Assembly (NCBI GenBank): GCA_031426395.1
Contig: JANPLG010000399.1
Coordinates: forward strand, 1-60,658
Reading direction: 5' to 3'
DNA length: 60,658 nt
DNA from: Actinomycetes bacterium
GTDB lineage: Bacteria > Armatimonadota > SYMT01
Made by a program: the position numbers and the translations under genes. Each line of letters starts with the position of its first letter. The first letter of the stretch is position 1. Positions 16,181-25,608 of the stretch are shown here, piece after piece. The notes below the pieces were generated by a model that was not told where the DNA came from, ran no database searches, and saw only the letters and a list, made by a program, of their open reading frames with translations.

Positions 16181-16537
16181 TCAGTAGGTGGATGGCCCCC
16201 GGTTCCACGCCATCGGCTCACGGTACTGCGCGTAGCGGTTCCGCCGGGGTCCGCGCCCGCGTGGAGCCAGCGGTTGGCGCAGCACGGGCCGCAGCAGCCC
16301 GGCCAGCGGCTGCATCCGGGTCAGCAGCACCATCTCTCCCAGCCGCCAGATCACCAGCGTCACGATCCCTCCCATCAGGAAGAGGACGAATAGCTCGCCG
16401 AGGCAAAGCGCAAGAACCATCGCCAACGGAGCGCGGGCGCGGGGCAGCGTCCAGGAGGGCAGGAAGAAGACGTAGAAGAGGAGCAGCCCGGCGAGTGCGG
16501 CTGCAATCACGACGGTCAGCGGTGGTATTGAGGTCAT
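16181..16537 (-). CDS. Small membrane protein of unknown function in the pilin operon
   Basis: Two hydrophobic segments; ATGA overlap with the ATPase stop codon. Confidence 0.6.
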   Translation of the reverse strand: MTSIPPLTVVIAAALAGLLLFYVFFLPSWTLPRARAPLAMVLALCLGELFVLFLMGGIVTLVIWRLGEMVLLTRMQPLAGLLRPVLRQPLAPRGRGPRRNRYAQYREPMAWNRGPSTY

Positions 16538-18141
16538 CCGCCAGCCTCCTGAAGTTCGTCGATCCATCGGTATTGGGTCCAGCCCCGAAGCGCTTCCATC
16601 TCGTGCGCTGAGCCGATCGGACCCCACCCGAGGACCCGTTTCACTTCGTCCAGGGTGGTGATCCCAGCGGCGGCTTTCCGCATGGCGTCCATCACGAGGC
16701 TGATCCCCTCGGACCTGGTCTCGAGTTCGTGGGTGGCTTCACCACGGATAACCGCGTCCCTCACAGCGTCCGTTACTTCCAGCAGTTGGAAGATCCCGGT
16801 GCGGCCCCGATAGCCGGTCCCTCCGCAGGCGTTGCAGCCTGCGCCACGGCTCCACTGGTAGGGACTGTCGTCAACGTATCCGGCCATCTCTCCGGCGGCG
16901 TCCGGGTCGGGCGCGCGGCACTCCGGGCAGACGCGGCGGACCAGCCGCTGCGCCAGGACCGCCGTGACGGAGCTGGCCACCAGGAACGGCTCGCAGCCGA
17001 GATCGACCAGCCGCGCGAAGACACCGGCCGCCGAGGGAGCGTGGATGCTACTTAGGATCAGGTGCCCCGTGAGGCCCGCCCGCACCGCGATCCCCGCCGT
17101 CTCCTCGTCCCGGATCTCACCGATCATGATGACTTCCGGGTCCTGCCGCAGCACGGTCCGCAGCCCCGCGGCAAAGGTGAGGCCAACCGCCGGGTTCACC
17201 TGCGTCTGATGGATCACACGCAAGTCGTACTCAATCGGATCCTCCACGGTGCAGAGGTTGGCTAGGTCGCGGCGCTCCATGTGGATGCGGCTGAGGCTCG
17301 CGTAGAGGGTGGTGGTCTTGCCGTGATTGCTGGGACCGGTGAGCAGGACCAGCCCCTGGGGACGCTTCAGTATCGCGTCCCACGCCGCCCGTGTGTCTGG
17401 AGCCATCCCCAGCCGGTACAGGCTCATCAAGGTCCGGGCGGGGTCGAAGAGGCGCAGGACCGCCTTCTCCCCGTGCAGCGTTGGGAGAAGCGTGAGGCGC
17501 ACATCCACCGTCCGGTCCTTGAGCCGGAGGGCGAAGCGTCCCTCCTGCGGCAGGTCGGCGCGGTAGACGGCGAGGTTGCCCAGCACCTTCAGGCGTGCCA
17601 GCAGCCGCGGCAGCCAGAGTAGCGGGACCCGCGCCACATCTGAGAGTACGCCATCGACCCGCAGCCGCACCCCCAGTCCGGCGCTCGTCGGCTCCAGGTG
17701 GAGGTCGCTCGCGCCGTGGTGGGCCGCCTGCGTGAGGATGAAGTCAACCGTGTTGACAACGCCATTGGACCCAGAGAGCAGCGATCTCACCGTCTCCTGG
17801 ATGGCAGCGAACGGCTGCCGCTCCGCGTAGACCGGCAGGGTGCGCCGGTGAAGAGCGGAGAGCTGCTCCTGAATCAGCTCCGCGCCGTACCGAGCCTGAA
17901 GCGGATGGATCCGGTCGAGCATCCAGATCGCGCCGGTCTCCAGCTCCACCTTGATCAGGCCGTGTCGTCCGCGCCCGTCCGCCACCACGCCCGCCACGTC
18001 GTCATACGCCACGGACCCGATGACGCCGCCCGCGCTGTCCAGTAGCGTCATCCCCTCCGGAGCGATGTGGAGGCGCGCTCCATCCCCATTCTTCCATCGA
18101 CCTTCAATGACGGTTTCCACTGGCGCTCCACAGGCTAGCAA
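16534..18141 (-). CDS. GspE/PilB family assembly ATPase
   Basis: ASDLHLEP, RLRVDGVL, Walker A GPSNHGKTTT, TVEDPIEY, LRQDPEVIMIGEIRD, GHLILSSIH, CPEC/CNAC Zn motif. Confidence 0.92.
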   Translation of the reverse strand: MLACGAPVETVIEGRWKNGDGARLHIAPEGMTLLDSAGGVIGSVAYDDVAGVVADGRGRHGLIKVELETGAIWMLDRIHPLQARYGAELIQEQLSALHRRTLPVYAERQPFAAIQETVRSLLSGSNGVVNTVDFILTQAAHHGASDLHLEPTSAGLGVRLRVDGVLSDVARVPLLWLPRLLARLKVLGNLAVYRADLPQEGRFALRLKDRTVDVRLTLLPTLHGEKAVLRLFDPARTLMSLYRLGMAPDTRAAWDAILKRPQGLVLLTGPSNHGKTTTLYASLSRIHMERRDLANLCTVEDPIEYDLRVIHQTQVNPAVGLTFAAGLRTVLRQDPEVIMIGEIRDEETAGIAVRAGLTGHLILSSIHAPSAAGVFARLVDLGCEPFLVASSVTAVLAQRLVRRVCPECRAPDPDAAGEMAGYVDDSPYQWSRGAGCNACGGTGYRGRTGIFQLLEVTDAVRDAVIRGEATHELETRSEGISLVMDAMRKAAAGITTLDEVKRVLGWGPIGSAHEMEALRGWTQYRWIDELQEAGG

Positions 18142-18168
18142 GCGGTCAAATCAGTTCTGACAGGTTGA

Positions 18169-18265
18169 ATGGGGGAGAGAGTGAGTGGGGGAACGGGAGT
18201 GGCCAAGCACGGGAGCGGACCCCCACTCTCCCCCATCTCCCTCTCCCCCAGTCTCCCATTCGCCC
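18169..18265. repeat. Inverted purine/pyrimidine octamer-period arrays between the pilC-like and pilB-like genes
   Basis: G-rich arm 18169-18202 versus C-rich arm 18220-18265; units such as ATGGGGGA and GTGGGGGA. Confidence 0.6.
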
Positions 18266-18307
18266 GGTTACAAGCACTTCGTTCTCGAATAGAAATGTGC
18301 GGGATCC

Positions 18308-19525
18308 CTACTGCCCACCGCTCAGGCTCTGAATCACGGTGATGAGCGGGCTCAGCACCCCTAAGGCGACCCATCCCGCCAGCAGCGCGAGGCCGAGGAT
18401 GAAGATCGGCTCCACCAGCGCGCCCACCCGCGCGGCGAGGTAGTCCACGCGCTCCGAGTACCATCCGGCGAGGCGGTCGAGGGCCCCCGGCAGGTCACTG
18501 CCGCTCTCCGCCGCCGCCACCTGCCCAATGAAGGTGGGCGGCAGGATGCCGGCATGGGCGAAGGAAGCGGCGAGCGATTCGCCGGCGGCCACGCGTGGGA
18601 TCGCGTCCCACATGGCGGCCTGGAGGAGCGGGCTCTCCGCGCCCTGGCCGGCCAGCCGCAGCGCGTCCAGGAGCGGCACTCCTCCGCGTAGGAGAACCGC
18701 AAGGAGACGGGTGAGCCGCAGCAGCGCCAGGTTCTCCCACAGCACGCCGATCACGGGAATCCGCGTCCGGAGATGCGCCCAGTGGAAAGGCGACTGCCGC
18801 TCACGCCTGCGGATGGCCCACCATGTGCCCAGAGCCGCCCCCGGGACCACCAATGCGAGCAGCGGGCAGACCGCGCCGCCAAAGAACTGGAGCGCCCGCG
18901 TGGCGAGCGGGAGCTGTTCATCCTTTAGGCCCAGCTCCTTGTAGAGCGCGAAGAAATTGGGCTGGATCAGCGCGAAGCTCAGCGCCAGCAGCGCCAGCGT
19001 GAAGGCGCCCACCACCTGCGGGTAGACAAGCGCCGTCCGAATCCGGAGCGAGGCCTGCCCCGCGCGCTCTGTGTACTCCGCGAGGTCCCGGAGCACCGCC
19101 GGAAGGTGGCCCCCAATCTCCGCAGCTTCCAGGAGGCGCGTATGGAGCGGCGAGAAGAGCTGCGGATAGGCCTCCAGGGCATGGGAGAAGGCACCGCCGC
19201 CTTGCAGCGTGCGGGTCACGTCGAGCAGGAGGGCGCGGAATACCGGGTTCTGGGTCTCCCGCGCCTGGAGCTCCACGGCCGTTGGAAGCGCGACCCCGTT
19301 GCCCAGCATGGTGGCAAGTTGCCGGTAGAGGGTGCAGAGCTCCCCCTCGCTGACGGAGCGGGCGTAGCGGCGGAGGCGGCGGTCCGGGCGGAGCGGGACC
19401 ACCCGGCTCAGCGTGCAGCCCTCGCTGCGAAGCCGGTGTGCCAGCGCCGGGAGGCTGGGCGCTGTCAGCGACAGCTCGCCGGTGCCGCCGGAGGAATCAG
19501 TGAACTGGACCAGGTAGCTCGGCAT
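18308..19525 (-). CDS. GspF/PilC family inner-membrane platform protein
   Basis: RQLATMLGNGVAL, AAEIGGHL, ALVYP, VLLRGGVPLLDAL, AAESGSDL, ALVEPI; two T2SSF repeats. Confidence 0.92.
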   Translation of the reverse strand: MPSYLVQFTDSSGGTGELSLTAPSLPALAHRLRSEGCTLSRVVPLRPDRRLRRYARSVSEGELCTLYRQLATMLGNGVALPTAVELQARETQNPVFRALLLDVTRTLQGGGAFSHALEAYPQLFSPLHTRLLEAAEIGGHLPAVLRDLAEYTERAGQASLRIRTALVYPQVVGAFTLALLALSFALIQPNFFALYKELGLKDEQLPLATRALQFFGGAVCPLLALVVPGAALGTWWAIRRRERQSPFHWAHLRTRIPVIGVLWENLALLRLTRLLAVLLRGGVPLLDALRLAGQGAESPLLQAAMWDAIPRVAAGESLAASFAHAGILPPTFIGQVAAAESGSDLPGALDRLAGWYSERVDYLAARVGALVEPIFILGLALLAGWVALGVLSPLITVIQSLSGGQ

Positions 19526-19756
19526 AGGCGGGGAACGGCGGGGAAAGCGGGTATCCCGTTCTTAACGAGGTTTCAGTCGGCTGGTTGCGGCCGGCTCGAA
19601 AAAAGTCTGCTCCGTGCGGAGATCGAAGAAGAGCACGTTGCCCAATTGCTCCAGCGCGGTAGTCCCTGTGTGCGGGGGTCGGAGGTCCATGACAACGATT
19701 GCGGTGAAGCAAGTGACAGCACCTTGGAAGTCCCGGACAAGGTAAGGAGACCGCTG

Positions 19757-20995
19757 ATGGATCGACGCACTCTGCTGGCCGCTCTGGCCGGAGCACTGCC
19801 GGCCGCTGCCATGCGACCGGCGCTGGCGGATGACCCCAAGCTGCCTCCCATCCGCGCCATTACCCGCGGCCAGCGGTTCCACTGGTTCGGCTACTACGAC
19901 AAGCTGGAGTTTGATCCCAGCAGCCGCTTCGTGCTCTCCAACCAGGTCGATTTCGAACATCGCTCACCGCGCCGCGAGGATCAGATCCGGGTCGGGATGG
20001 TCGATACGGAGGATGGCGACCGCTGGACGGAGTTGGGCACCAGCCTCGCGTGGAACTGGCAGCAGGGGTGCATGCTCCAGTGGCTTCCCGGCTCCAAGAC
20101 CGAAGTCCTCTGGAACGACCGCGAGGGCGACCGCTTCGTCTGCCACATTGCCGACATCAAGAGCGGCAAGCGCCGCACGATCCCGCACCCCGTCTACTGC
20201 GTCAGTCCGGACGGGCGGTGGGGCCTCGCCCCCGATTTCCGGCGCCTCAACGACACCCGGCCCGGCTACGGCTACGCGGGACTGCCGGACCCCAACCGGG
20301 AGAAGCTGGCGCCGGAAGACGCCGGCATCTGGAAGGTGGACCTCCGCACTGGGAAGCAGGAGTTGCTTCTCTCATTTGCGGACACAGCGCGGATTGCGTA
20401 TCCGGGCGGCTTCAGCCAGGGCGCCAAGCACTGGTTCAACCACCTGCTCTTCGCCCCGGATGGGAAGCGCTTCATCTTCCTCCACCGCTGGCGCGGCGAT
20501 AAGGAAGGCCGCGGCTTCTCAACCCGGATGTTCACGGCGGGGCTGGACGGCAAGGACCTCCACATCCTGGACCCGCACGGGAAGACCAGCCACTTCATCT
20601 GGCGGGACCCGCAGCATGTCCTCGCATGGGCGTGGCATCCCTCCCACGGTGATCGGTTTTACCTCTACCAGGATCGCACGGATAAAGTAGAGGTCATCGG
20701 CAAGGAGGTGATGACCGTCAACGGGCATTGCACCTACCTTCCGGGCAACCGCTGGATATTGAATGACACCTATCCCGATCCGCAGCGGCTGCAGCACGTC
20801 TTTATCTACGAGGTGGCGACGGGTCGTCGCGTGCCGCTGGGTTCCTTTCACTCGCCCCGGGAGTATGCTGGGGAGTGGCGGTGTGACACGCATCCGCGTT
20901 TCAGCCCGGACGGCAACAGGGTCGTGATCGATTCGCCGCACGGAGGCAACGGGCGCCAGCTGTACCTCATAGAAATCGGGGCGCTCATCCGCTGA
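19757..20995 (+). CDS. Tat-exported beta-propeller protein (oligogalacturonate lyase/TolB-like)
   Basis: AAGGAG RBS; MDRRTLLAALAG Tat signal; HWFGYYDK, WNWQQG, HLLFAPDG, RCDTHPRFSPDG. Confidence 0.75.
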   Translation: MDRRTLLAALAGALPAAAMRPALADDPKLPPIRAITRGQRFHWFGYYDKLEFDPSSRFVLSNQVDFEHRSPRREDQIRVGMVDTEDGDRWTELGTSLAWNWQQGCMLQWLPGSKTEVLWNDREGDRFVCHIADIKSGKRRTIPHPVYCVSPDGRWGLAPDFRRLNDTRPGYGYAGLPDPNREKLAPEDAGIWKVDLRTGKQELLLSFADTARIAYPGGFSQGAKHWFNHLLFAPDGKRFIFLHRWRGDKEGRGFSTRMFTAGLDGKDLHILDPHGKTSHFIWRDPQHVLAWAWHPSHGDRFYLYQDRTDKVEVIGKEVMTVNGHCTYLPGNRWILNDTYPDPQRLQHVFIYEVATGRRVPLGSFHSPREYAGEWRCDTHPRFSPDGNRVVIDSPHGGNGRQLYLIEIGALIR

Positions 20996-21007
20996 AAGTA
21001 GAAGTTC

Positions 21008-21778
21008 TTGAATCGAGTGCTGTTAGGGGTGACGGGATCGGTGGCTGCGGTCAAGACCCCCCTGCTGGCGAGTGCCCTGCGCGGTGCCGGAATGGACGTC
21101 AAGCTCGTCCCAACTGGCCCCGCGCTCACATTTTTTGATCCGGTAGCCATTGCTACTGGGAATGGGCATCGTCATTCCACCGCCAGAGCTCCCAACGGGC
21201 ACGGCGTGAGCATGGACGGCCTCTCCGTACGTGGGCAGACCTCCGTCTACCTGGATGAGGACGAATGGCCCAGCGGCCGCCTCTTCGAGGTCGGCGAGCC
21301 AGTCCTCCACATCGAGCTCCGCAAGTGGGCCGACCTCCTCATCATCGCCCCTCTGGACGCCAACACGCTTGCGAAGATGGCGGGCGGCCAGTGCGACAAC
21401 CTGCTGACCTGCGTCTACCGGGCGTGGGACTTCACACGACCCGTGATCCTTGCTCCGGCCATGAACACGCTGATGTGGGAGCATCCCGTCACCCGACAGA
21501 ACCTGGGGCAGCTCCAGGAGTATCACGGCGGTGGCACCGCCCGCGCCCGGTCCACCTCCGACGAAATGACCATTCAGGTGAACGCGCGCTGCCCGCACCT
21601 CTGGGTCGTCCCCCCGCAGGAGAAGCGGCTGGCCTGCGGAGACGTTGGCAACGGCGGCATGGCGGAGGTCGAAGACATCGTCCGCATCGCGGTCGAGGCG
21701 CTCGCCCATCGTGACGACCTGCCCCCCCGTCCAATCGTTCGGAAGGCCAAGCGGGAGCGTGCGGCGGGTTCGTGGTAG
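21008..21778 (+). CDS. coaC: Monofunctional phosphopantothenoylcysteine decarboxylase (HFCD flavoprotein, HAL3/PPCDC type)
   Basis: LLGVTGSVAA, VLHIELRKWAD, APLDANTLAK, CDNLLTC, PAMNTLMW, KRLACGDVGNGGMAE; no CoaB domain; TTG start. Confidence 0.88.
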   Translation: MNRVLLGVTGSVAAVKTPLLASALRGAGMDVKLVPTGPALTFFDPVAIATGNGHRHSTARAPNGHGVSMDGLSVRGQTSVYLDEDEWPSGRLFEVGEPVLHIELRKWADLLIIAPLDANTLAKMAGGQCDNLLTCVYRAWDFTRPVILAPAMNTLMWEHPVTRQNLGQLQEYHGGGTARARSTSDEMTIQVNARCPHLWVVPPQEKRLACGDVGNGGMAEVEDIVRIAVEALAHRDDLPPRPIVRKAKRERAAGSW

Positions 21779-22026
21779 CGTTAGAGTGCCCGGTGAGAGA
21801 CGATGACAGCCTGCCGCCCGTCGCACATCCAACTCCATCTGTCCCCAATCTGGCCCATTCCTGATCTGTGTCCCTTCTGTGAACTCTGTCTCCGTTTGTA
21901 TCGAAGATGGAGAGTAGCCGAGCAGCAGAGATTAGAGGGCGAAGGGAGCGCTGCGGTATCGGGCGAATGAAACGGCAGTGCGCCGATAGCCGGTGCGCAC
22001 TCGTCCGCTTCTCGATTCCACCTCTC

Positions 22027-22722
22027 ATGCAGCAACCGCCTAACTTCCCCATCGTTCAGGTATCACTCGATCTTCCCACCCTCGCCGACGCCATGCCCGT
22101 GGCCGAGATTGCCGTCCGCGCCGGTGTGGACTGGCTGGAAGCCGGCACCCCCTTGATCCTCGGCGAGGGGATGCACGCTGTTCGCGCCTTGCGGGAAGCC
22201 TTCCCACACCATCCCATCGTGGCGGACCTGAAAACCATGGACGCCGGCTACCTGGAAGCCGAGATGATGTTCAAGGCGGGAGCGACCCATGTCGTAGTGA
22301 TGGGCGTCGCGCATCCGGCGACCATTGCGGGTGCCGTCCGCGCTGCCAAGGAGTTCGGTGGCGCGGTCATGGGCGATGTCATGGTCCACCCGGACAAGCC
22401 CGCCTGCGCCCGCATGATGCAGGACCTGGGAGTGGACTACATCATCGTCCATACCGGCCTGGACGAGCGGAACGCCGAGAAGGGCAAGCATCCCTTCGAT
22501 GACCTGGAGGCCGTTGTGGCGGCGGTCACCATTCCTGTTCAGGCGGTGGGCGGCCTCTCCATCGAACAGGCGATCCAAGCACCGAAGCTCGGTGCGCCCC
22601 TGGTGGTGATTGGCGCGCCGCTGGTGGTGGACAACGAAGAGTTCAAGCCCAGCACCTCCGACACCCGCCTCTTCGACATCCTGAAGCGCATCGTGACCGA
22701 AGTGAAGGGGACCGCCCAGTAG
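22027..22722 (+). CDS. OMP-decarboxylase/HUMPS family protein (3-hexulose-6-phosphate synthase-like)
   Basis: VQVSLD, LEAGTPLI, ADLKTMDAG (DxKxxD), IVHTGLD, AVGGL. Confidence 0.85.
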   Translation: MQQPPNFPIVQVSLDLPTLADAMPVAEIAVRAGVDWLEAGTPLILGEGMHAVRALREAFPHHPIVADLKTMDAGYLEAEMMFKAGATHVVVMGVAHPATIAGAVRAAKEFGGAVMGDVMVHPDKPACARMMQDLGVDYIIVHTGLDERNAEKGKHPFDDLEAVVAAVTIPVQAVGGLSIEQAIQAPKLGAPLVVIGAPLVVDNEEFKPSTSDTRLFDILKRIVTEVKGTAQ

Positions 22723-22775
22723 TCAGTCGTCAGCCAGGTGCCTTCATGAGGCCTTCGGCGGAAAGATCGCGCGGA

Positions 22776-23726
22776 TCAGGCCACTGGCCCGTAGTGTGCG
22801 CCCCAGCCCGCTGCGAGCTTCTTGCCGACTGCGGAAAGCGCCCGCTGTTCATCCTGGCTCAGCGGTACGAATTCGCGCGCCCACTTGAGGTTCTGCCGCA
22901 GCTCTTCCCGCGTAGACATCCCAAGAACTGCCAGACTGGCACCCGGGAGGGAGAGGGCATACCGCAGAGCAGAGTTCAGGTACTCCTTCGGCATCTTAGA
23001 GTTGCTCATCCCGGGCTTGTCGTAGATCATCCCGCCGTAGACCTTCATCGCCACAAGGCCGATGCCCTTGCGCCGCGCCGCCGACCATACCCGGTCCTCG
23101 AAGCCGTAGGTATGGCGGTCGACGAAGTTGACGGCGTTCATCAGGACATCGATGTCGTGGTCCGCGAGGATCTTGAGGAAGGAGGCCGGGCGGTGATGCC
23201 CGCTGATCCCCACGAAGCGCGTGAGGCCCTTCTGCTTCGCCCGGAGCAGCGCTTGCAGCACCCCGTTCTTCCCCATCACCCGCGCCGTATCCATATCCCC
23301 AAGGGAATGAATGTGTACGAGGTCGGCATGGTCGGTGCGTAGCTCCTTCAGGTTCTTCTCCAGCATCCGGAGCGCCGCCTCGCCGTCCGCCTCATGGCAC
23401 TTGGTGACCAGAAACATCTCCTTACGCCGGGTCTTCGTCACTAGACCCAACTGCTTCTGGGCTCGGCCATAGCCGGTGTGCGTTGGGGCCGTGTCGAAGT
23501 AGGTGATGCCCTGGTCCAGCGCCTCGTGGTAGAGCGCTGCGCCGATCTCCTGGCTCCGTCGGATGCCCGTGGGCGCCGTCCCAAATCCCAGGATCGGCAC
23601 CTCCACCCCCGTCCTACCCAGCTTGCGCCGAGGGAGCGATTGAAGCGCCGCATCCGAGGGTTCCTCGGAAAGCCCCAGGGCGGCTCCTGCGGCGAGCAGG
23701 GCGCGGCGATCGAACATGGGTGGCAT
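22776..23726 (-). CDS. Tat-signal aldo/keto reductase
   Basis: FDRRALL Tat motif; RRKLGRTG, LGFG, YFDTAPTH, LVTK, DLVHIH, GISGH; GAGGTG RBS. Confidence 0.88.
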   Translation of the reverse strand: MPPMFDRRALLAAGAALGLSEEPSDAALQSLPRRKLGRTGVEVPILGFGTAPTGIRRSQEIGAALYHEALDQGITYFDTAPTHTGYGRAQKQLGLVTKTRRKEMFLVTKCHEADGEAALRMLEKNLKELRTDHADLVHIHSLGDMDTARVMGKNGVLQALLRAKQKGLTRFVGISGHHRPASFLKILADHDIDVLMNAVNFVDRHTYGFEDRVWSAARRKGIGLVAMKVYGGMIYDKPGMSNSKMPKEYLNSALRYALSLPGASLAVLGMSTREELRQNLKWAREFVPLSQDEQRALSAVGKKLAAGWGAHYGPVA

Positions 23727-23785
23727 GGGCTGGCACCTCGACGGTGAAGAGCGGCGGCGGCAAGCAGGTAGCACTATTCTACCTT

Positions 23786-23885
23786 GCCCGCTACACCACA
23801 CCCGCAAGCCCGCTACACCACACCCACAAGCCCGCTACACCACACCCGCAAGCCCGCTATACCACACCCGCAAGCCCGCTATACC
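23786..23885. repeat. 22-bp tandem repeat, about 4.5 copies
   Basis: Unit GCCCGCTA(C/T)ACCACACCC(G/A)CAA at 23786, 23808, 23830 and 23852 plus a partial copy; no spacers. Confidence 0.95.
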
Positions 23886-24321
23886 TTGAATCTGTCGGTG
23901 GGAGCGCCGATTACGGTGCCCAGCCTTGCAAAGGTTCAAACAGTTGTTATGGTAGTAGGGCACCCACGGCGCGCATCGCTTCGATTCACACGCCACATGA
24001 GGTCGGCGCGTGAGCGCGCGCACCACCCAACCTCCAGGTCAGCCTGCTCTTGAAGGTGAGCCATCCCAGTTTCCACGCCCGCACCTGCCGCGTGGGTTGC
24101 AGCGAGAGGCCCCCGGAGGTTTACCGAGGGTCATCCGCTGGTAGGAAAGAAACGGACTTCACGAGCCCCTTCAGCTCACCGCATTCTGTCCGCGCGTCCG
24201 TCGCGCCAGTCCCCGTTGGGACGACATCAGTGCTGGTGGGGCTCTTTCTCCCGTCGTTCCGAGCCTTATGGCTTTGTCACGCGTGGAGTTGACCGACTGA
24301 CGAAAGGCAATGCAGTAACCC

Positions 24322-25608
24322 ATGTTCGACTTCTTGATTGTTGGTGCGGGATTCGCCGGAAGTGTTCTAGCAGAGCGGCTCGCAACCCAGGAGGGGAAGA
24401 AAGTCCTGGTCATTGATAAGCGCAACCACATCGGCGGCAACGCTTACGACCACTACAACGAGGACGGGATCCTAGTCCACAAGTACGGACCCCACATCTT
24501 CCACACCAACTCGGAGCGCGTGTTCGAGTACCTCTCACAGTTCACCGAGTGGCGTCCATACGAGCACCGCGTGCTGGCGGAAGTGGACGGACAGCTCCTC
24601 CCGATCCCGATCAACCGCACCACCATCAATAAGCTCTACAACCTTGACCTGAAATCGGACGAAGAGTGCGAGGAGTTCCTGGCTAGCCGCGCGGAGCCGG
24701 TGGAGCAGTGCCGGACCAGCGAGGACGTCGTGGTCAGCAAGGTCGGGCGGGAGCTGTATGAGAAGTTCTTCCGCGGCTACACCCGAAAGCAGTGGGGCCT
24801 CGACCCCTCAGAGCTGGACGCACAGGTGACAGCCCGGGTGCCCACGCGCACCAACACGGACGACCGGTACTTCACGGACACGTTCCAGGCCATGCCGCTG
24901 CACGGCTACACGCGGATGTTCGAGAAGATGCTTGATCACCCCAACATCCAGGTCATGCTCAACGCGGACTACCGCGATGCGATGGGAGTGATCCCCTACC
25001 GCGAGATGATCTTCACCGGGCCAGTGGACCAGTACTTCGACTACCGCTACGGCAAGCTGCCCTACCGCTCCCTTGAGTTCAAGCACGAGACGCTGAACAA
25101 AGAGCAGCACCTTCCCGTGGCCGTAGTCAACTCCCCGAACGAGCACGAGTACACCCGCGTCACGGAGTTCAAGCAGCTCACCGGGCAGGAGCACCAGAAG
25201 ACCAGCGTGGTCTACGAGTTCCCCCGCGGCGAAGGCGATCCTTACTATCCGATCCCGAAACCGGAGTGCAACGCGCTCTACAAGAAGTACCAGGAACTGG
25301 CGGAGCGCACTCCCGGCGTCTGGTTCGTTGGGCGGCTGGCGACCTATAAGTACTACAACATGGACCAGGTTGTTGCCCAAGCGCTCAGCACCTTCGAGAA
25401 GGTGATCGGCACCCGCCGAGAGCGCATGGCAGTGACTGCTGCCCGGTCCGCCTTGGTGGAGTCTGCGGGTGACGCTGCCGTCGCGACGGCAGTGCGGACG
25501 GCCCGTCCTGAAACGGTAGCCGTGACCTCGAACGGCTTGAACGGACTGAACGGCCACTCAAGCAAGGCATCCACCAGGGCTACCATCTCTCTGGAAGATG
25601 AAGAGTAG
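24322..25608 (+). CDS. glf: UDP-galactopyranose mutase
   Basis: IVGAGFAG, HIGGNAYD, HKYGPHIFHT, YTRKQWG, EPYYP-like GDPYYP, GRLATYKYYNMDQ. Confidence 0.96.
   Translation: MFDFLIVGAGFAGSVLAERLATQEGKKVLVIDKRNHIGGNAYDHYNEDGILVHKYGPHIFHTNSERVFEYLSQFTEWRPYEHRVLAEVDGQLLPIPINRTTINKLYNLDLKSDEECEEFLASRAEPVEQCRTSEDVVVSKVGRELYEKFFRGYTRKQWGLDPSELDAQVTARVPTRTNTDDRYFTDTFQAMPLHGYTRMFEKMLDHPNIQVMLNADYRDAMGVIPYREMIFTGPVDQYFDYRYGKLPYRSLEFKHETLNKEQHLPVAVVNSPNEHEYTRVTEFKQLTGQEHQKTSVVYEFPRGEGDPYYPIPKPECNALYKKYQELAERTPGVWFVGRLATYKYYNMDQVVAQALSTFEKVIGTRRERMAVTAARSALVESAGDAAVATAVRTARPETVAVTSNGLNGLNGHSSKASTRATISLEDEE

Follow-up and report, generated by a model that had tools for sequence, protein, structure and literature searches.

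A eukaryote-type stand-alone phosphopantothenoylcysteine decarboxylase in an Armatimonadota family, a probable xenologous replacement of CoaC

The window analyzed here, a stretch of 60,658 nucleotides that makes up contig JANPLG010000399.1 of a metagenome-assembled genome (MAG) in the phylum Armatimonadota, encodes on its forward strand (21008..21778) a stand-alone flavoprotein of the eukaryotic HAL3/PPCDC type, termed coaC below. The gene product very probably serves as the housekeeping phosphopantothenoylcysteine (PPC) decarboxylase (CoaC; EC 4.1.1.36) of its host. It belongs to a bacterial branch of the eukaryote-type family, and the gene was very probably acquired horizontally by the ancestor of one Armatimonadota family (f1), where it replaced the CoaC function. 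In the usual account of coenzyme A (CoA) biosynthesis, bacteria and archaea possess a fused CoaBC protein and eukaryotes possess separate PPCS and PPCDC enzymes. The chemistry of the enzyme is standard, and its interest is evolutionary rather than mechanistic.

Sequence and structural identity of the window protein

The only Pfam domain assigned to the 256 amino acid product is PF02441 (Flavoprotein; e-value: 2.6e-28). The open reading frame (ORF) ends without a fused C-terminal CoaB domain (PF04127), and the protein is thus monofunctional, as a preliminary description of this DNA had proposed. Comparison against the PDB sequences with phmmer ranks the plant protein AtHAL3a first (e-value: 3e-47), followed by human PPCDC (2.5e-43) and Cryptococcus Hal3 (1.5e-34), and far weaker matches are obtained with Mycobacterium CoaBC (2.3e-16) and with EpiD, MrsD, SpaF and TvaF (1e-8 to 1e-15; EpiD and MrsD: 1e-8 to 1e-11). 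The scores against the curated models for bacterial CoaBC (TIGR00521; 121.7 bits) and for the streptococcal-type stand-alone CoaC (TIGR02113; 112.7 bits) fall below the respective cut-offs of 219.7 and 261.4 bits. An AlphaFold model built with 15 homologs (mean predicted local distance difference test score, pLDDT: 86; predicted template modelling score, pTM: 0.83) retrieves the AtHAL3a PPCDC structure 1mvn as its top Foldseek match (e-value: 3.5e-21; TM: 0.88). The AtHAL3a structures are followed by Cryptococcus Hal3 and human PPCDC, with CoaBC ranking after these, and the TM scores to the PPCDC structures range from 0.82 to 0.88. The PDB ranking, the TIGR cut-offs, the Foldseek order and the phylogeny described below, in which the eukaryote-type family is separated with 100/99 support, all agree with the suggestion of the preliminary description that the protein resembles HAL3/PPCDC and not bacterial Dfp, and its identity as a eukaryote-type stand-alone flavoprotein is thereby confirmed.

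Gene call and catalytic residues

The coaC ORF is intact and starts with TTG. Its frame opens at position 21002, after an in-frame TAG, and the TTG at 21008, 12 nucleotides beyond the stop codon of the upstream gene, is therefore the first usable start. Homologs begin, by alignment, two to three residues ahead of the (I/V)LLGVTGS motif. The public gene call (P0002), which is 249 amino acids long and starts from GTG at 21029, would cut off strand beta-1. The motifs quoted in the preliminary description are all found in the translation, namely DEDEW (residues 83-87), PVLHIELRKWAD (98-109), CDNLLTC..RAWD (129-141) and KRLACGDVGNGGMAE (206-220). The same sequence, with zero differences, was furthermore recovered by a second assembler in the Logan assembly of a freshwater-sediment run, which is possibly the source sample and as such does not constitute independent support. 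This metagenome is the only DNA run listed as carrying the locus, and no RNA runs are listed.

The N-terminal motif GVTGSVAA (residues 7-14; 21026..21049, forward strand) is nearly invariant in both a bacterial (A1) and a eukaryotic (A2) alignment and corresponds to the Rossmann-type turn which we take to bind flavin mononucleotide (FMN), as in other HFCD flavoproteins. When aligned to the AtHAL3a structure 1e20, residues H101, N153, M156 and C210 occupy the positions of His90, Asn142, Met145 and Cys175, respectively, with H101, N153 and C210 conserved without exception in both alignments. The His101 codon is located at 21308..21310 (forward strand), while Asn153 and Met156 form part of PAMNTLMW (residues 150-157; 21455..21478, forward strand), which conforms to the PXMNXXMW motif. 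The substrate-recognition clamp (residues 199-220; 21602..21667, forward strand) is predicted as a beta-hairpin in the model and incorporates KRLACGDVGNGGMAE. Its invariant cysteine, Cys210 (codon 21635-21637, forward strand; within KRLACGD), aligns with the serine of the C175S mutant structure 1mvl, a position that is also mutated in 1mvn. In AtHAL3a, His90, Asn142 and Met145 participate in the FMN-dependent oxidation/decarboxylation step, Cys175 participates in the reduction of the intermediate, and the active sites are situated at the protomer interfaces of a homotrimer (PMC9604783).

From these correspondences we infer that the window protein shares the mechanism, and with it the enzymatic activity and oligomeric state, of AtHAL3a and human PPCDC. 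By this analogy, CoaC would be an FMN-containing oligomer with its active sites between protomers, in which FMN would oxidize the cysteine thiol of 4'-phosphopantothenoylcysteine, assisted by His101 and by Asn153 and Met156 of PAMNTLMW. The thioaldehyde would then decarboxylate spontaneously, and FMNH2 and the clamp residue Cys210 would reduce the ene-thiol to 4'-phosphopantetheine. The substrate would be supplied by a separate, native CoaB of the bacterial type, encoded on another contig.

Two inserted segments

A loop containing two NGH triplets (residues 46-79; 21143..21244, forward strand) is located after beta-2, between FFDP and VYLDEDEW, and is approximately 25 residues longer than its counterpart in AtHAL3a. 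Close relatives differ widely in the length and sequence of this loop, and pLDDT values below 50 are observed over residues 53-69. P0003, the nearest relative with 76% identity across the aligned core, has a much shorter loop, and those of P0004, P0097 and P0104 are equally long or longer. The insertion of approximately 25 amino acids on which the preliminary description remarked is thus present, but it is not the unique feature it was taken for. No tandem duplication underlying the two NGH triplets could be detected at the DNA level, and the segment is regarded as a hypervariable surface loop that is predicted to be disordered.

A second insert, which was absent from the preliminary description, is the conserved one of the two. 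Residues 172-198 (21521..21601, forward strand; net gain of 24 amino acids) replace three residues of AtHAL3a (161-163), with the alignment breaking from query residue 171/AtHAL3a 160 to query residue 199/AtHAL3a 164. The insert is present in all fifteen bacterial members that were aligned and is modelled with a confident helix at residues 184-194 (pLDDT: 92-96), just ahead of the Cys clamp. As such, the spacing between PAMN and LACGD is approximately 52-58 residues (commonly 58) in the bacterial clade, compared with 34-36 in eukaryotes and in the bacterial-type CoaC, and the window protein, with a spacing of 58, departs from the approximately 34 amino acids that separate PXMNXXMW from the Cys clamp in eukaryotes. 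The protein terminates in a basic tail of approximately 35 amino acids, which is modelled with low confidence.

CoA biosynthesis in the host genome

The host MAG (6.16 Mb; 611 contigs; 95% complete) contains two PF02441 genes, the window coaC and a gene for the flavin prenyltransferase UbiX (TIGR00421; e-value: 1.5e-55), which leaves the window gene as the sole candidate for CoaC. The preliminary description had anticipated a separate coaB elsewhere, and a search of the genome for coaBC and coaB identified a single PF04127 gene, on contig C432, which encodes a stand-alone CoaB of 247 amino acids. This protein belongs to the bacterial type: its top matches in the PDB are the Streptococcus pneumoniae structure 2gk4 and Escherichia coli CoaB (e-values: 1e-19 to 1e-20), compared with 9e-8 for human PPCS. 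It shares 49-52% amino acid identity with CoaB proteins of the same phylum and 36-42% with those of planctomycetes, indicating that only CoaC has been replaced. A type III pantothenate kinase (CoaX) is also encoded, together with a CoaE fragment at a contig end, and both are bacterial.

The complement of the host genome also bears on a reading of the gene as a peptidyl-cysteine decarboxylase of the LanD/EpiD type, or as another HFCD flavoprotein of secondary metabolism. The fold and the His/Asn motifs are common to LanD enzymes and would accommodate this function. EpiD, MrsD, TvaF and SpaF are, however, matched 30 to 40 orders of magnitude worse than the PPCDCs, and the PPCDC-specific cysteine (C210) is retained, the LanD enzymes known to us being without the clamp cysteine. 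The neighboring genes are unrelated to ribosomally synthesized and post-translationally modified peptides (RiPPs), with no RiPP-type genes nearby, orthologs are found in coaB operons, and the genome would be left without a CoaC. We consider this reading highly improbable.

Distribution and operon context

Relatives were sought in one genome per species and occur in at least 492 genomes, and 395 protein clusters reach an e-value of 1e-30 or lower. The best 80 of these genomes belong almost entirely to the Gemmataceae and Isosphaeraceae, with the addition of a single Armatimonadota MAG (G006). This MAG and a further one (G003) share the GTDB family of the window genome (f1). Closed genomes of cultured strains, namely Limnoglobus roseus PX52, Singulisphaera sp. 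Ch08 and Tundrisphaera lichenicola P12, are among those with an ortholog. The question of horizontal transfer that had been raised for this gene is borne out by its distribution, and the gene is no isolated oddity.

Among 251 genomes of the window phylum, which represent at least 43 families, five contain a match at an e-value of 1e-30 or lower, and all five belong to family f1. These account for five of the seven f1 genomes, including that of the window, and a sixth has a partial match at a contig end. There were no matches at this threshold in the other families sampled (at least 42), which, where listed, have frames of CoaBC length or short bacterial-type frames. The clade gene is present in 78/81 Gemmatales and 76/81 Isosphaerales genomes. 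In an even sample of the Planctomycetota the eukaryote type was observed in two of 121 genomes, the remainder having a bacterial-type CoaC that is mostly stand-alone. The transfer that can be demonstrated from these data is one between bacterial phyla.

In 26 of 33 Gemmataceae loci a divergent bacterial-type coaB is located directly upstream of the eukaryote-type coaC. The two ORFs of L. roseus PX52 (L078:3085-4603) overlap by 8 nucleotides; a second CoaB is encoded elsewhere in Limnoglobus (L095). Adjacency to coaB is rare in the Isosphaeraceae (2/14), and neither the window nor the other genomes of its family showed it. The bacterial-type loci of the Planctomycetota and Armatimonadota likewise have coaB ahead of coaC, opposite to the way in which the two domains follow each other in fused CoaBC, and this common order fits an in-place replacement in the Gemmatales.

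A vertical inheritance of the eukaryote-type form from deep ancestry, with loss or replacement elsewhere and no transfer into the window family, would draw on the split coaB and coaC genes that are common in both phyla, and approximately unbiased (AU) tests leave the branching order undecided. Its presence in one of at least 43 Armatimonadota families and in 2/121 Planctomycetota genomes would, however, require the bacterial type to have taken its place dozens of times independently. Proteins from the two phyla, which are not sister groups, nonetheless share 50-60% identity and fall into a single clade. Such an ancestry therefore appears decidedly unlikely.

The fragmentation of the host MAG into 611 contigs could also suggest eukaryotic contamination or mis-assembly in the bin. 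The gene lies, however, mid-way on a 60.7-kb contig amid bacterial genes, which include those for a type II secretion system/type IV pilus (T2SS/T4P) ATPase and platform protein, glf and an aldo-keto reductase. It has no introns, its G+C content is uniform with its surroundings and a second assembler gives an identical sequence. Furthermore, it is conserved across family f1 and has orthologs in the closed genomes of cultured planctomycetes. On the strength of the bacterial neighbors, the second assembler, the conservation in the family and the closed genomes, contamination is excluded with near certainty.

Phylogeny and origin

A phylogeny was constructed from 85 domain-trimmed sequences, with 25 of 110 rows having been dropped (mostly unlabelled representatives and redundant planctomycete loci). 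The taxa comprised the window protein and its bacterial relatives, plants, animals, fungi, a choanoflagellate, a red alga, Balamuthia, MMETSP protists and unlabelled cluster representatives, and ten bacterial-type CoaC sequences from the Planctomycetota and Armatimonadota served as outgroup. The tree was inferred with IQ-TREE under the LG+C20+F+G4 model with posterior mean site frequencies (PMSF) from 190 columns. The insert columns fell under the 50% fill threshold and were excluded, and the common insert therefore provides separate support for the bacterial clade.

The eukaryote-type family is separated from the bacterial-type CoaC outgroup with 100/99 support, and the window protein is positioned with the eukaryotic PPCDCs and away from ordinary bacterial CoaC, which is not the placement that the preliminary description had named as contrary to its proposal. 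Within this family the window protein belongs to a bacterial clade (99/93), in which all the family f1 sequences and the window protein form an Armatimonadota subclade (97/80) and the latter pairs with the metagenomic protein P0003 (100/98). The insert-bearing metagenomic proteins P0151, P0149, P0164 and P0207 join the bacterial clade with 87/82 support. Plants, Amoebozoa and Opisthokonta constitute a clade (95/89) outside of which the bacterial clade is placed. Basally, the eukaryote-type family forms a polytomy that contains protists, the red alga and a set of unlabelled proteins, some of which are the flavoprotein-Peptidase_M23 fusions described below. The placement in the eukaryote-type family and the monophyly of the bacterial clade are robust; the sister group of this clade and the direction of any exchange with eukaryotes are not.

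Two further sequences were encountered in this part of the tree. A 184 amino acid PPCDC from a Planctomycetota MAG (L100; G063:C93) is without the bacterial insert and falls in the clade of named eukaryotes near the Opisthokonta (87/75). It has an odd amino acid composition and stems either from eukaryotic sequence that contaminates the bin or from a transfer of its own. The metagenomic protein P0161 (677 amino acids) combines an insert-less eukaryote-type CoaC domain with a C-terminal CoaB domain (PF04127) and groups with unlabelled eukaryote-like sequences; it may be a eukaryotic bifunctional PPCS-PPCDC.

A FastTree analysis under LG placed the bacterial clade among the eukaryote groups, beside plants, the red alga and Balamuthia. 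This placement was treated as unreliable, as the site-heterogeneous IQ-TREE analyses disagree with it. Together with AtHAL3a as the best solved relative and an AU test that does not reject bacteria and plants as one clade (p=0.34), it could be taken to favor the acquisition of the bacterial clade from a crown eukaryote, such as a plant or alga, in the geologically recent past. Against such a transfer, the clade of plants, Amoebozoa and Opisthokonta leaves the bacterial clade out, and the 24 amino acid insert is present in all bacterial members and in no named eukaryote sampled. Furthermore, nearly all sampled genomes of two planctomycete orders possess the gene, which resides there in a coaB operon, indicating that it is old. 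The G+C content of the gene region (0.645) matches that of the window (range: 0.62-0.68), and this absence of a compositional anomaly at coaC likewise indicates that the transfer is not recent. A recent origin from a crown eukaryote is therefore considered unlikely, and the link between the bacterial clade and eukaryotes is old and may have run in either direction.

An ancient gene exchange between planctomycetes and eukaryotes has been proposed for the sterol synthesis of Gemmata. The insert-bearing bacterial clade, together with flavoprotein-Peptidase_M23 fusion proteins of large phages, could similarly be more closely related to the eukaryotic PPCDCs as a whole than any other prokaryotic or viral proteins, with the monofunctional eukaryotic enzyme going back to an ancient exchange with a planctomycete-like lineage, in either direction and with phages as possible vectors. 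The basal polytomy of the eukaryote-type family leaves room for this idea, which is rather doubtful.

Our preferred reading remains that of a xenologous CoaC in family f1. A eukaryote-type, insert-bearing CoaC would have become the housekeeping enzyme in the common ancestor of the Gemmatales and Isosphaerales, and a later transfer would have carried it into the ancestor of one Armatimonadota family, where the native CoaC function would have been displaced and the native CoaB retained. The donor most likely belonged to the Planctomycetota, a direction derived from the distribution (two whole orders compared with one family) and not from the topology.

Several observations weigh against this reading. 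Holding the Planctomycetota monophyletic costs 3.5 log-likelihood units (AU p=0.41), so the topology leaves the direction of transfer unproven, and the outgroup was drawn from two phyla only, without archaeal CoaBC. The ortholog of a same-genus genome (G001; L007) shares 57% amino acid identity with the window protein, compared with 64% for that of a different genus (G005), and forms a long branch at the base of the family subclade, so that either fast evolution or a more complex gene history in family f1 may be involved. Furthermore, no CoaD (TIGR01510) was found in the 95% complete host genome, although the control genomes were matched; an assembly gap or a divergent phosphopantetheine adenylyltransferase could account for this. 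Finally, the 24 amino acid insert adjoins the catalytic clamp, and it is by inference that PPC decarboxylase activity is extended to the whole bacterial clade.

Genomic neighborhood of coaC

Upstream of coaC, a gene on the forward strand (19757..20995) encodes a predicted secreted beta-propeller protein with a weak PD40 match. Its longest ORF extends from 19106, and the likely start is near a twin-arginine-like MDRRTLLAAL sequence at 19757. This gene and coaC are probably co-transcribed. No sigma-70-like promoter was found around coaC, terminator-like sites occur at chance level and no Rfam families were matched in 19000-24500. The downstream gene (21907..22722, forward strand; PF00215; e-value: 6.8e-28) belongs to the OMP-decarboxylase/HUMPS family, resembles 3-hexulose-6-phosphate synthase and lies outside the CoA pathway.

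Further upstream, adjacent genes for a T2SS/T4P-type ATPase (PF00437; e-value: 3.8e-109) and a platform protein (PF00482; e-value: 5.5e-46) are located on the reverse strand (16534-19525). A UDP-galactopyranose mutase gene (glf) is located at 24322-25608. A 22-nucleotide unit, GCCCGCTACACCACACCCGCAA, is repeated in 4.5 tandem copies with 96% identity (23786-23885) in the gap that precedes glf, where the repeat occupies the 5' end of a minus-strand aldo-keto reductase gene and the sequence immediately ahead of this gene. There was no Rfam match to this repeat region.

Significance

A eukaryote-type PPCDC would operate as a housekeeping enzyme beside a bacterial CoaB in the Gemmatales, the Isosphaerales and, outside their phylum, family f1, and the gene would be a clear example of a single essential pathway step being swapped for a xenologue. 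The clade would furthermore add a core-metabolism component to the eukaryote-like gene set of planctomycetes and provides a data set for the origin of the eukaryotic enzyme. Since the curated CoaC and CoaBC models miss this clade, its members are annotated as 'flavoprotein' only and pathway reconstructions may wrongly report a gap. Inhibitors directed at CoaBC may also act differently on the proteins of the clade. Hundreds of orthologs are already present in public databases as 'flavoprotein' or PPCDC. We found no report on a eukaryote-type PPCDC clade in Planctomycetes, Gemmata or Armatimonadota in the searchable literature, an absence that is no proof of non-publication.

Comparison with known systems

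The N-terminal domain of the large-phage fusion proteins falls in the same eukaryote-type HFCD branch as the window protein. Unlike the latter, these proteins carry an M23 peptidase domain, and several are without a recognizable Cys-clamp motif. The metagenomic fusions P0160, P0178, P0141, P0162, P0263 and P0227 (370-410 amino acids) combine a eukaryote-type HFCD flavoprotein with Peptidase_M23, and the fusion clusters are labelled Viruses/Uroviricota by the ESM Atlas. Their best match among GenBank phages is the 735-kb uncultured phage LR756501 (36% identity; 96% coverage), and no match was obtained when viral contigs were scanned with the phage-type fusion P0160.

Bacterial CoaBC (Dfp; TIGR00521; M. 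smegmatis 6tgv and E. coli) and streptococcal CoaC (TIGR02113) belong to the same superfamily, have the same catalytic residues and catalyze the reaction proposed for the window protein. The latter nevertheless shares just 27-28% identity with M. smegmatis CoaBC in the Foldseek alignment (e-value: 2e-16, compared with 3e-47 for AtHAL3a), and approximately 31-37% (tblastn) with the bacterial-type CoaC of both phyla, from which it is separated by the 100/99 branch.

With AtHAL3a (1e20, 1mvl and 1mvn) and human PPCDC (1qzu), the window protein shares the features of a monofunctional and putatively FMN-binding flavoprotein, the active-site histidine, the PXMNXXMW motif, the Cys clamp and the overall fold. 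Its core (residues 79-171) aligns almost without gaps to AtHAL3a, with many identical positions, and the identities in Foldseek amount to 40-41% across the full structural alignment with AtHAL3a and to 46% with human PPCDC. The window protein differs from both in being bacterial, in the helical insert of 24 amino acids, in a disordered loop that is approximately 25 amino acids longer and in the tail of approximately 35 amino acids. Furthermore, its partner CoaB is of the bacterial type and not a eukaryotic PPCS.

The stand-alone flavoproteins of the Gemmataceae and Isosphaeraceae, as represented by Limnoglobus roseus PX52, Singulisphaera and Tundrisphaera, differ from the window system in their host phylum and, in the Gemmatales, in the location of coaC behind coaB in an operon. 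They nonetheless share with the window protein the 99/93 clade, the insert, a length class of 200-240 amino acids and 47-59% amino acid identity.

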